Shown here piece by piece: positions 12,470 through 17,204 of a DNA stretch of 64,000 bases. The stretch is from Escherichia coli (lineage in GTDB: Bacteria; Pseudomonadota; Gammaproteobacteria; Enterobacterales; Enterobacteriaceae). The translations under genes and the position numbers were made by a program. The first letter of the stretch is position 1; each line of letters starts with the position of its first letter. The DNA lies in the NCBI RefSeq assembly GCF_003334815.1, contig NZ_QOWO01000001.1; one strand, given 5' to 3'. A model generated the notes under the pieces. It was not told where the DNA came from and made no database searches. It saw only the letters and a program-made list of their open reading frames with translations.

Positions 12470-13249
12470 ATGGAAATCAGCCTGTTGCAGGCATTTGCGT
12501 TGGGCATTATCGCCTTTATCGCTGGCCTGGATATGTTTAACGGCCTAACCCATATGCACCGCCCGGTGGTCCTCGGCCCGTTGGTCGGGCTGGTACTTGG
12601 CGATCTGCATACCGGAATTTTAACCGGCGGTACGCTGGAACTGGTGTGGATGGGGCTGGCCCCGCTGGCGGGCGCACAGCCGCCTAACGTGATTATCGGT
12701 ACTATCGTCGGCACGGCGTTTGCCATTACTACTGGCGTGAAACCCGATGTCGCAGTAGGTGTCGCCGTACCTTTCGCTGTCGCAGTACAGATGGGGATTA
12801 CCTTCCTGTTCTCGGTGATGTCCGGCGTGATGTCTCGCTGCGACCGGATGGCGGAGAACGCCGATACTCGCGGCATTGAACGCGTGAACTATCTGGCACT
12901 GCTGGCACTCGGCATTTTCTATTTTCTCTGCGCTTTCCTGCCTATCTACTTCGGCGCGGAACATGCAAAAACCATCATTGATGTCCTGCCGCAACGATTA
13001 ATCGACGGCCTCGGCGTCGCGGGCGGCATCATGCCAGCAATCGGTTTTGCCGTGCTGCTGAAAATCATGATGAAAAACGTCTACATCCCCTACTTCATCC
13101 TGGGCTTTGTTGCCGCCGCCTGGCTCAAGTTACCAGTGCTGGCTATTGCTGCCGCTGCGCTGGCGATGGCGCTGATCGACTTGCTGCGTAAATCTCCTGA
13201 ACCGACTCAACCTGCGGCACAGAAAGAGGAATTTGAAGATGGCATCTAA
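12470..13249 (+). CDS. agaW: PTS N-acetylgalactosamine-specific IIC component, full length
   Basis: 259-aa polytopic membrane ORF of the mannose-family IIC type. Confidence 0.85.
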   Translation: MEISLLQAFALGIIAFIAGLDMFNGLTHMHRPVVLGPLVGLVLGDLHTGILTGGTLELVWMGLAPLAGAQPPNVIIGTIVGTAFAITTGVKPDVAVGVAVPFAVAVQMGITFLFSVMSGVMSRCDRMAENADTRGIERVNYLALLALGIFYFLCAFLPIYFGAEHAKTIIDVLPQRLIDGLGVAGGIMPAIGFAVLLKIMMKNVYIPYFILGFVAAAWLKLPVLAIAAAALAMALIDLLRKSPEPTQPAAQKEEFEDGI

Positions 13250-14117
13250 TCAAACCACCCTGCCGAACGTCAGTGAAAACGAAGAAACATTGCTGACTGG
13301 CGTCAATGAAAACGTGTATGAAGATCAGAGCATTGGCGCGGAGCTGACGAAAAAAGATATCAACCGCGTCGCCTGGCGTTCCATGCTGTTACAAGCGTCT
13401 TTTAACTACGAACGTATGCAGGCTTCTGGCTGGTTGTACGGTCTGCTGCCTGCTCTGAAAAAGATCCACACTAATAAACGCGACCTGGCGCGCGCCATGA
13501 AGGGGCATATGGGTTTCTTCAATACCCATCCGTTTCTGGTGACGTTTGTTATCGGCATTATCCTTGCGATGGAGCGTTCTAAGCAGGACGTTAACAGTAT
13601 TCAGAGCACCAAAATTGCCGTCGGTGCGCCGCTTGGCGGGATTGGCGATGCAATGTTCTGGCTAACGCTACTGCCGATTTGTGGCGGGATTGGAGCCAGT
13701 CTGGCATTGCAAGGCTCCATTCTTGGCGCAGTCGTCTTTATTGTGCTGTTCAACGTGGTACACCTGGGGCTGCGTTTTGGTCTGGCGCATTATGCTTACC
13801 GCATGGGCGTGGCGGCGATTCCACTGATTAAAGCGAATACCAAAAAAGTCGGCCATGCTGCGTCTATCGTTGGGATGACGGTAATCGGTGCGCTGGTGGC
13901 AACCTATGTTCGTTTAAGCACCACGCTGGAAATCACGGCGGGCGACGCAGTGGTTAAGTTACAGGCTGATGTTATCGACAAACTGATGCCGGCCTTCTTA
14001 CCGTTGGTCTACACCCTGACCATGTTTTGGTTGGTACGCCGCGGCTGGAGTCCGCTGCGTCTGATTGCAGTTACCGTGGTTCTCGGCATCGTCGGTAAAT
14101 TCTGCCATTTCCTTTAA
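13233..14117 (+). CDS. agaE: PTS N-acetylgalactosamine-specific IID component
   Basis: 294-aa ORF of the mannose-family IID type, overlapping the agaW 3' end; exact start uncertain. Confidence 0.8.
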   Translation: MKMASNQTTLPNVSENEETLLTGVNENVYEDQSIGAELTKKDINRVAWRSMLLQASFNYERMQASGWLYGLLPALKKIHTNKRDLARAMKGHMGFFNTHPFLVTFVIGIILAMERSKQDVNSIQSTKIAVGAPLGGIGDAMFWLTLLPICGGIGASLALQGSILGAVVFIVLFNVVHLGLRFGLAHYAYRMGVAAIPLIKANTKKVGHAASIVGMTVIGALVATYVRLSTTLEITAGDAVVKLQADVIDKLMPAFLPLVYTLTMFWLVRRGWSPLRLIAVTVVLGIVGKFCHFL

Positions 14118-14134
14118 ATACAATGAGGTATTAG

Positions 14135-14569
14135 ATGTTAAGTATTATTTTGACAGGGCATGGCGGGTTTGCCAGCGGCATGGAAAAAGCAATGAAGCAA
14201 ATTCTCGGTGAGCAATCGCAGTTTATCGCCATCGATTTTCCGGAAACCTCAAGCACCGCGCTGCTTACATCGCAGCTTGAAGAGGCCATCGCCCAACTGG
14301 ATTGTGAAGACGGCATTGTTTTTCTGACGGATTTGCTGGGCGGCACGCCGTTTCGCGTAGCTTCAACGCTGGCGATGCAAAAACCGGGCTGTGAAGTGAT
14401 CACCGGCACCAATTTGCAACTGCTACTGGAGATGGTGCTGGAGCGCGAAGGGTTAAGCGGTGAAGAATTCCGTGTACAGGCGCTGGAGTGTGGACACCGA
14501 GGGCTGACCAGTCTGGTGGACGAGTTAGGCCGCTGCCATGAAGAATGTCCGGTCGAGGAAGGAATATGA
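14135..14569 (+). CDS. agaF: PTS IIA component (mannose family)
   Basis: 144-aa ORF with the IIA-Man fold signature LTGHGGFASG. Confidence 0.85.
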   Translation: MLSIILTGHGGFASGMEKAMKQILGEQSQFIAIDFPETSSTALLTSQLEEAIAQLDCEDGIVFLTDLLGGTPFRVASTLAMQKPGCEVITGTNLQLLLEMVLEREGLSGEEFRVQALECGHRGLTSLVDELGRCHEECPVEEGI

Positions 14570-15699
14570 CACACGTTCTGCGCGCCAGAAGGCTGCTGAC
14601 TGAAGAGGGATGGCTCGATGACCATCAGTTGCGTATTGCTGACGGTGTCATCGCAGCAATCGAACCGATTCCAGCGGGCGTGACTGAACGCGATGCGGAA
14701 CTGCTCTGCCCTGCTTACATCGACACCCATGTACACGGTGGTGCGGGCGTTGATGTAATGGATGACGCGCCGGATGTACTCGACAAGCTGGCAATGCACA
14801 AGGCACGCGAAGGTGTCGGCAGTTGGTTACCGACCACCGTAACCACGCCGCTTAATACCATTCATGCGGCGCTGAAACGTATTGCTCAACGTTGCCAACG
14901 CGGCGGACCTGGTGCGCAAGTGCTGGGGAGTTATCTCGAAGGACCGTACTTCACGCCGCAGAATAAAGGCGCGCATCCGCCGGAGTTGTTTCGCGAGCTT
15001 GAAATTGCCGAGCTGGATCAGTTGATTGCCGTTTCTCAGCACACCTTACGTGTGGTAGCGCTGGCACCGGAAAAAGAAGGGGCATTGCAGGCCATCCGCC
15101 ATCTTAAACAGCAAAACGTAAGGGTGATGCTGGGGCATAGCGCGGCGACCTGGCAACAAACCCGCGCCGCATTTGATGCTGGTGCCGACGGCCTGGTGCA
15201 TTGCTATAACGGGATGACAGGTTTACATCACCGCGAACCGGGAATGGTTGGCGCGGGATTAACGGACAAGCGCGCCTGGCTGGAACTGATAGCCGATGGT
15301 CATCATGTGCATCCGGCGGCAATGTCGCTGTGTTGTTGCTGTGCGAAAGAGAGAATCGTACTGATCACCGACGCGATGCAGGCAGCTGGGATGCCGGATG
15401 GTCGCTATACGTTATGTGGTGAAGAAGTGCAGATGCACGGTGGCGTTGTCCGTACCGCGTCTGGTGGGCTGGCGGGCAGTACGCTGTCTGTTGATGCGGC
15501 AGTGCGCAATATGGTCGAGTTGACGGGCGTAACGCCTGCGGAAGCCATCCATATGGCGTCGCTGCATCCGGCGCGAATGCTGGGTGTTGATGGTGTTCTG
15601 GGATCGCTTAAACCGGGCAAACGCGCCAGCGTCGTTGCGCTGGATAGCGGGCTACATGTGCAACAAATCTGGATTCAGGGTCAATTAGCTTCGTTTTGA
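14566..15699 (+). CDS. agaA: N-acetylgalactosamine-6-phosphate deacetylase, full length
   Basis: ORF 14545..15699; start taken at MTHVLRARRL (377 aa); NagA-like amidohydrolase. Confidence 0.85.
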   Translation: MTHVLRARRLLTEEGWLDDHQLRIADGVIAAIEPIPAGVTERDAELLCPAYIDTHVHGGAGVDVMDDAPDVLDKLAMHKAREGVGSWLPTTVTTPLNTIHAALKRIAQRCQRGGPGAQVLGSYLEGPYFTPQNKGAHPPELFRELEIAELDQLIAVSQHTLRVVALAPEKEGALQAIRHLKQQNVRVMLGHSAATWQQTRAAFDAGADGLVHCYNGMTGLHHREPGMVGAGLTDKRAWLELIADGHHVHPAAMSLCCCCAKERIVLITDAMQAAGMPDGRYTLCGEEVQMHGGVVRTASGGLAGSTLSVDAAVRNMVELTGVTPAEAIHMASLHPARMLGVDGVLGSLKPGKRASVVALDSGLHVQQIWIQGQLASF

Positions 15700-15774
15700 T
15701 AGTTTGCTCCTTTATTGGGCCTTCACTTCCCCCGTAAGGCCTTTCTTTTTCTTTCGTTTTGATCTGTGCAGCGG

Positions 15775-15862
15775 TGTCGGATGCGACGCTAACGCGTCTT
15801 ATCCGACCTACAGTTGGTGACCGCAAGGCCGGATAAAGCGTTTGCGCCGCATCCAGCAATCC
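15775..15862. repeat. REP-type extragenic palindromic elements
   Basis: gcgacgctaacgcgtcttatccgacctac and ggccggataaagcgtttgcgccgcatcc motifs. Confidence 0.6.
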
Positions 15863-16049
15863 CTTTTGCTTCCTTTATCTTTTCTTTCAACGATCACAAA
15901 TTTCGTTTTATTTCTTTTTTCTCCATTGAACTTTCAGTTTCTTTTCTATAGATTTTAATCAACGAAAGACATCACCAAGTGAAATGAAACGAAAGGCAAG
16001 TGAAAGCGACAACGCCCGACGTCAAGTTCATCAGACTAAGGATTGAGTT
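15863..16049 (+). promoter_or_regulatory. agaS promoter region with TTTCGTTT / AAACGAAAG motif repeats (candidate AgaR operator)
   Basis: tttcgttttatttc, aacgaaagac and gaaatgaaacgaaagg upstream of agaS. Confidence 0.5.
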
Positions 16050-17204
16050 ATGCCAGAAAATTACACCCCTGCTGCCGCCGCAACCGGTACATGGACTGAA
16101 GAAGAGATCCGCCATCAGCCTCGCGCATGGATCCGTTCACTCACCAACATCGACGCGCTACGTTCCGCGCTCAATAACTTCCTTGAACCGTTACTGCGCA
16201 AAGAGAATCTGCGGATCATCCTGACCGGAGCCGGAACGTCGGCATTTATCGGTGACATCATCGCGCCGTGGCTCGCCAGCCATACCGGTAAAAACTTCAG
16301 CGCCGTACCGACCACCGATCTGGTCACCAATCCGATGGACTACCTGAACCCAGCTCATCCGCTGCTGTTGATCTCCTTCGGTCGATCCGGCAACAGCCCG
16401 GAAAGCGTCGCAGCCGTGGAACTGGCAAATCAATTTGTACCGGAATGCTATCACCTGCCGATCACCTGCAACGAAGCGGGCGCTCTTTACCAAAACGCGA
16501 TCAACAGCGATAACGCGTTTGCCCTGCTGATGCCCGCAGAAACGCACGATCGCGGCTTTGCGATGACCAGCAGCATTACCACCATGATGGCCAGCTGCCT
16601 CGCGGTTTTCGCACCTGAGACGATCAACAGCCAAACCTTCCGCGACGTGGCGGATCGTTGCCAGGCGATCCTGACCTCACTGGGCGATTTCAGCGAAGGT
16701 GTGTTTGGTTACGCACCGTGGAAACGGATCGTTTATCTCGGTAGCGGTGGCTTACAGGGCGCAGCACGCGAGTCGGCGCTGAAAGTGCTGGAACTGACGG
16801 CGGGTAAACTGGCGGCCTTTTATGATTCTCCAACCGGATTCCGTCATGGACCAAAATCGCTGGTCGATGACGAAACGCTGGTGGTGGTATTTGTCTCCAG
16901 CCACCCTTACACCCGTCAGTATGATCTTGATCTGCTGGCTGAACTTCGCCGTGACAACCAGGCAATGCGTGTAATCGCCATCGCCGCGGAAAGCAGCGAC
17001 ATCGTCGCTGCCGGTCCACATATCATCCTGCCACCGTCACGTCACTTTATCGACGTTGAGCAGGCATTTTGCTTCCTGATGTACGCCCAGACGTTTGCAC
17101 TGATGCAGTCGCTGCACATGGGCAATACGCCGGATACCCCATCAGCCAGTGGCACCGTTAACCGCGTGGTGCAAGGCGTAATCATTCATCCGTGGCAGGC
17201 ATAA
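16050..17204 (+). CDS. agaS: Sugar isomerase (SIS-domain) AgaS, putative galactosamine-6-phosphate deaminase/isomerase
   Basis: 384-aa ORF with SIS domains. Confidence 0.9.
   Translation: MPENYTPAAAATGTWTEEEIRHQPRAWIRSLTNIDALRSALNNFLEPLLRKENLRIILTGAGTSAFIGDIIAPWLASHTGKNFSAVPTTDLVTNPMDYLNPAHPLLLISFGRSGNSPESVAAVELANQFVPECYHLPITCNEAGALYQNAINSDNAFALLMPAETHDRGFAMTSSITTMMASCLAVFAPETINSQTFRDVADRCQAILTSLGDFSEGVFGYAPWKRIVYLGSGGLQGAARESALKVLELTAGKLAAFYDSPTGFRHGPKSLVDDETLVVVFVSSHPYTRQYDLDLLAELRRDNQAMRVIAIAAESSDIVAAGPHIILPPSRHFIDVEQAFCFLMYAQTFALMQSLHMGNTPDTPSASGTVNRVVQGVIIHPWQA

Follow-up and report, generated by a model that had tools for sequence, protein, structure and literature searches.

The segment at 15863-16049, directly 5′ of agaS, is very probably (probability about 0.93) the PS promoter-operator of the E. 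coli agaS-kbaY-agaBCDI operon, which is repressed by AgaR. It lies in a 64-kb chromosomal window of E. coli (the whole stretch of DNA that was analysed) carrying a complete aga/gam cluster, as defined by the list of open reading frames, a 100% match to annotated E. coli genomes, and NCBIfam models. The initial annotation had proposed an internal AgaR-controlled promoter for this half of the cluster. The proposal is borne out by the literature (PMC3668189, PMC4694137, PMC10101011), by the identity of the region with that of K-12, and by two inverted AgaR sites that bracket a conserved −35/−10 pair in 65-66 of 71 species. The AgaR-controlled PS is already known and was characterised in 2004; the finding is real but ordinary, and has little importance beyond correct annotation. 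It is the rediscovery, from sequence alone, of a promoter-operator described in 2004, which shows the first reading to have been sound. Comparison across species adds a precise predicted placement of the hexamers and operators, and shows that at least 65 species keep the operator pair with its spacing. It also marks one of three originally highlighted strings as probably non-functional.

The aga cluster and the characterised PS promoter

The gene of the cognate repressor, agaR (9625-10434, minus strand, from the RefSeq annotation of the identical locus), is located in the cluster itself, 5.5 kb upstream of PS. Its product is a DeoR/GlpR-family repressor and belongs to the NCBIfam equivalog NF040755, scoring 465 bits where the cut-off is 260. 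The prlF-yhaV toxin-antitoxin pair (8771-9570) directly adjoins agaR, an arrangement shared with annotated E. coli genomes. The first half of the cluster, kbaZ-agaV-agaW-agaE-agaF-agaA, ends at 15699. After a gap of 350 nt follows agaS (16050-17204, plus strand; RefSeq annotation), the first gene of the agaS-kbaY-agaBCDI operon, whose product matches TIGR02815 agaS_fam with 635 bits against a cut-off of 529. Open reading frames, RefSeq annotation and NCBIfam matches agree in placing the region under study within this agaA-agaS intergenic region, directly 5′ of the operon. The Shine-Dalgarno sequence of agaS, CTAAGGA (16036-16042, plus strand), is kept in an alignment of 21 genera.

The agaA-agaS intergenic region is identical to positions 3281626-3281978 of K-12 MG1655 (353/353 aligned positions), and because of this 100% identity the experiments performed in K-12 apply directly to the window. 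The two strains share the sequence over the whole intergenic region, the repressor gene, the downstream operon and the motif; the PS region shows no difference. They differ in the preceding genes, since the window strain has an intact agaW-agaE-agaF-agaA segment (12470-15699) that K-12 MG1655 has lost by deletion, its agaW and agaA being pseudogenes. The intergenic region thus has the K-12 sequence although the upstream segment is undeleted in the window strain.

Binding of AgaR upstream of agaS in K-12 has been reported (Ray & Larson 2004, Mol Microbiol 51:813, as cited in PMC3668189), as has a DNase I footprint of AgaR at agaS (Ray & Larson 2004, as cited in PMC3668189 and PMC4694137). PMC3668189 labels the promoters of the cluster PR, PZ and PS and puts agaS under “the second promoter, Ps”. 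According to the same source, citing Ray & Larson 2004, single-copy Ps-lacZ fusions are induced 20-fold by N-acetylgalactosamine. In the ΔagaR mutant of E. coli C, expression of agaS measured by qRT-PCR was constitutive and 175-fold higher (PMC3668189). The same model of two AgaR-repressed operons is given in PMC4694137 and PMC10101011, and the physiological inducer is described as not established (PMC4694137).

AgaR sites upstream of agaS

The three strings noticed at the outset are indeed present 5′ of agaS, at 15901-15914, 15961-15970 and 15981-15996, that is 54-149 nt before the ATG at 16050. They had been taken as a second cluster of one and the same motif. This holds for TTTCGTTTTATTTC and GAAATGAAACGAAAGG, which are full and conserved sites, and fails for AACGAAAGAC, which agrees with the 14-nt motif in its first 7 bases only. 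Site O1, TTTCGTTTTATTTC (15901-15914, plus strand), matches the motif exactly and covers about −60 to −47 relative to the predicted transcription start. Site O2, GAAATGAAACGAAAGG (15981-15996, minus strand; reverse complement CCTTTCGTTTCATTTC), carries an exact motif match at 15981-15994 and covers about +21 to +36. The two sites form an inverted repeat, 93% complementary, with a distance of 80 bp from centre to centre. On the K-12 map, O1 corresponds to 3281827-3281840, O2 to 3281907-3281920 and the predicted start to 3281887. The middle string AACGAAAGAC (15961-15970, minus strand) has the TTTCGTT core only, is conserved only in Escherichia, and is probably non-functional. A degenerate third AgaR-like repeat, CTTTCAGTTTCTTTTC (15931-15946, plus strand), belongs to a direct-repeat family and is situated in the spacer between the predicted −35 and −10 hexamers. 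A copy with a single mismatch to the motif, TTTCGTTTTCTTTT, occupies this position in Yersinia, Buttiauxella and several Kluyvera and Pluralibacter species.

Allowing at most one mismatch, the motif TTTCRTTTYRTTTY was found seven times in the 64-kb window against 0.61 matches expected, and none of 100 shuffles reached seven. All seven matches are located in the agaR-kbaZ or the agaA-agaS intergenic region. The divergent agaR-kbaZ promoter region (10435-10682) forms the first motif cluster, with five matches against a mean of 0.021 in local shuffles and with a CRP-like site at 10567-10582. Enrichment was weaker for the 9-mer CTTTCGTTT (five matches against 0.84 expected). Further upstream copies, CTTTCGTTT at 15751-15759 and TTCGTTTTGAT at 15690-15700 and 15753-15763, were considered as extra operators and are unsupported. 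They carry a G to T change in two of six E. coli, are not kept across genera, and fall in the T-run that follows a terminator-like hairpin.

Conservation was evaluated with one genome per species encoding AgaS, which gave 71 Enterobacterales loci whose AgaS proteins are 69-99% identical. Nearly all of them have agaS behind agaA or agaF, at a distance of roughly 260-440 nt. Summed over the 71 species, the 400-nt stretches preceding agaS amount to 28 kb and contain 190 motif matches, against 12 in the remaining 404 kb, corresponding to a 226-fold higher density. O1, with at most one mismatch, is found at about −150 from the ATG in nearly all 71 species, and O2 at about −70 in 69 of them. Both the forward and the inverted site are present in 65 of the 71, and in 62 of these 65 the distance between them is 79-81 bp. 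The alignment of 21 genera shows discrete conserved blocks within otherwise diverged sequence: GATCACA (15892-15898), O1, TTGAAC, CTTTCAGTTTCTTTTC, TATAGATTT containing TAGATT, O2 with its flanks (AAGTGAAAYGAAACGAAAG, 15977-15995), and CTAAGGA (16036-16042). Among six diverse E. coli, all of these blocks, including O1, O2 and the two hexamers, are invariant, and almost all variation is confined to one half of a repetitive element located further upstream.

Enterobacter sp. ENT03 (locus L072, 1684-2501) provides a natural control: its agaS begins about 60 nt after agaF, and no motif is found upstream of agaS. The cluster is rearranged in this genome, with agaR, agaF and agaS followed by agaBCD, and motif copies at −737 and −654 fall in the agaR-agaF gap. 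In Escherichia albertii (locus L071, 2300-2501), O1 is degenerate (TTTCACTTCATTTC) and the O2 region is displaced. The 2.5 kb upstream contain no homologue of agaA or agaF in this species, and the pattern suggests that its aga cluster is decayed or rearranged.

Probable end of the upstream transcript, predicted core promoter and transcription start

RNA folding predicted a terminator-like hairpin (15717-15742) directly after the stop codon of agaA, followed by a T-run, the whole extending over 15717-15759 on the plus strand. The stem pairs GGGCCTT with AAGGCCT and, in the simple stem reading, closes a loop of 12 nt; the terminator scanner missed it because this loop is longer than the program allows. 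From its predicted fold and its position, the hairpin probably forms the 3′ end of the kbaZ-agaVWEFA transcript.

The REP element which had been noted before the motif cluster is real and proved to be a two-unit BIME (15775-15858), recognised by its inverted repeats and by alignment of both units to a canonical REP copy at 1555-1588 of the window. REP1 (15775-15811, plus strand) has hairpin arms at 15776-15789 and 15794-15807 and is an imperfect palindrome matching the REP consensus. REP2 (15822-15858, minus strand) is in inverted orientation, and in the predicted fold it pairs with REP1 in a long helix. The same organisation is found in E. coli REP/BIME elements, which likewise consist of two inverted imperfect palindromes of about 37 nt with the REP consensus and lie between co-directional genes. 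A 97% match to REP1 occurs at an unrelated E. coli locus, and genomes gave matches in up to three places each by megablast with an exact 28-nt word, a search that undercounts REP copies. The BIME is the variable part of the intergenic region and not a regulatory site; the other aligned genera have unrelated sequence at its position. Two quite distinct alleles of the REP2 half (15814-15869) are found among E. coli, the flanking regulatory blocks being invariant, and at least 80% of the 98-nt REP2 version of the window is carried by only 1385 of 5426 genomes.

Between O1 and O2, a pair of the form TTGANN-17-TANNNT is kept in 66 of the 71 species. In the window it corresponds to a predicted −35 hexamer TTGAAC (15926-15931, plus strand) and a predicted −10 hexamer TAGATT (15949-15954, plus strand), separated by a spacer of 17 bp. 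The −10 hexamer was placed here because the TA...T positions of TAGATT are kept across genera while the overlapping TATAGA is not. Counting from this element, transcription would start at 15961 (± 2 nt, plus strand), giving a leader of about 89 nt. A generic promoter and terminator scan of 15600-16150 called nothing; PS was missed since its hexamers match just 8 of 12 positions. Two start-site data sets (PMC4782308, PMC3415461) hold no entry for agaS at the relevant coordinates or under the gene name; the operon is repressed in standard media.

Several other readings of the region were weighed. Chance resemblance in T-rich, low-complexity intergenic DNA would fit a region of 35% G+C with many T-runs, in which neither AACGAAAGAC nor the upstream CTTTCGTTT at 15751 is conserved. 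We give this explanation almost no credence. In dinucleotide shuffles of 15863-16049, the two motif matches observed compare with a mean of 0.042, and T-richness does not account for the matches because only 2 of 2000 such shuffles reached two. The position, orientation and spacing kept across 65 species refute it for O1 and O2. Equally hard to sustain is the idea that the conserved blocks belong to a structured leader RNA or a small RNA rather than to protein-binding DNA. O2 would indeed fall inside the predicted 5′ untranslated region; the fold of the leader, however, is no better than that of shuffled sequences (z = +0.55, with 144 of 200 shuffles at least as good), and the only Rfam matches are sub-threshold ones to the REP-derived naRNA4, within the BIME. 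Moreover, O2 repeats, in inverted form, a DNA motif that recurs upstream of the promoter and between agaR and kbaZ.

DeoR-family repressors use distant operators. The sites near agaS could by this token be auxiliary operators looping to those of the agaR-kbaZ region, with no separate promoter and with agaS expressed by read-through from PZ, and the scan did call no canonical intrinsic terminator between agaA and agaS. We consider this very unlikely in view of the conserved −35/−10 pair between the sites, the hairpin with its T-run and the BIME which separate the two genes, and the intact state of the region in K-12 despite the agaW-agaA deletion. Isolated Ps-lacZ fusions are, besides, active and inducible (PMC3668189 citing Ray & Larson). 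A promoter of its own for agaS being preferred, the main alternative concerns fine anatomy: all AgaR sites would be upstream of the core promoter and transcription would start near 16000-16040, where the initial annotation had expected it. The Ray and Larson abstract reportedly places the AgaR sites “upstream from the start sites”, a wording that, taken literally, does not fit with O2 at about +21 to +36. On the other side, 15997-16035 is the least conserved stretch, with indels, no shared −10/−35 elements and no TAnnnT in E. coli; transcripts begun beyond about 16035 would lack the conserved Shine-Dalgarno sequence at 16036-16042; and 66 of 71 species keep the hexamer pair at 15926-15954. Since the stretch offers no −10-like element, either in E. 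coli or shared between genera, the start near 16000-16040 is probably wrong. We regard it as unlikely, and it would leave the AgaR-controlled promoter itself unaffected.

Proposed mode of repression and related operators

According to the model that we favour, PS would be a sigma-70 promoter bracketed by two inverted 14-nt AgaR sites, with a degenerate third repeat in its spacer. AgaR, whose binding and repression at agaS are reported in the literature, would occupy the flanking sites O1 and O2 and probably the weak repeat between them as well, keeping the operon off; the bound repressor would prevent initiation or escape of RNA polymerase. Growth on N-acetylgalactosamine or galactosamine lifts this repression. 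The hairpin and the BIME would mark the end of the kbaZ-agaVWEFA transcript, and it is because this transcript is predicted to end there that the second half of the cluster would have its own promoter. The conserved inverted spacing of 79-81 bp suggests that O1 and O2 are bridged cooperatively by a single AgaR oligomer. A more elaborate version is tentative and somewhat doubtful: the bridging oligomer would wrap the promoter in a small loop, instead of plainly blocking it, and GATCACA would be an undescribed class I CRP half-site.

The GATCACA block (15892-15898), kept in most of the 21 genera, could be the right half-site of a CRP site of PS. It would form part of a 16-mer (15883-15898) whose centre, 15890.5, is at about −70.5 from the predicted start, the left half being poor and unconserved. 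A class I CRP promoter would have a 22-bp site resembling TGTGA-N6-TCACA at about −61.5 or −71.5, and of such a site the right half alone is seen here. A search with the CRP consensus at up to two mismatches gave no site upstream of agaS; the window as a whole contains 28 matches against 26.5 expected, which is no enrichment.

The PZ/PR region uses the same 14-nt motif and, like PS, combines a forward site (10594-10607, plus strand) with an inverted one (10634-10647, minus strand) near the start of the downstream gene. The paired sites are, however, 40 bp apart at PZ/PR and 80 bp apart at PS, and PZ/PR has additional sites near agaR. It also has a good CRP site (10567-10582, one mismatch), whereas PS has just the conserved half-site. 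The Ray and Larson abstract reportedly describes PZ as dependent on cAMP-CRP.

DeoR/GlpR-family repressors typically have several repeated sites at each promoter; AgaR belongs to this family, as do GlpR, DeoR, SrlR and TagR (the latter from E. coli Nissle). By comparison with the operators of these relatives, the recognition sequence is specific to AgaR, and the bridging of O1 and O2 is proposed for PS. In their layout, the CRP and TagR sites are similar to the aga cluster (PMC12226905). In the window, the CRP site 5′ of kbaZ at 10567-10582 is near-consensus, TGTGAATCAGATCAGA, with its one mismatch, and lies beside the AgaR sites at 10594-10607 and 10634-10647.
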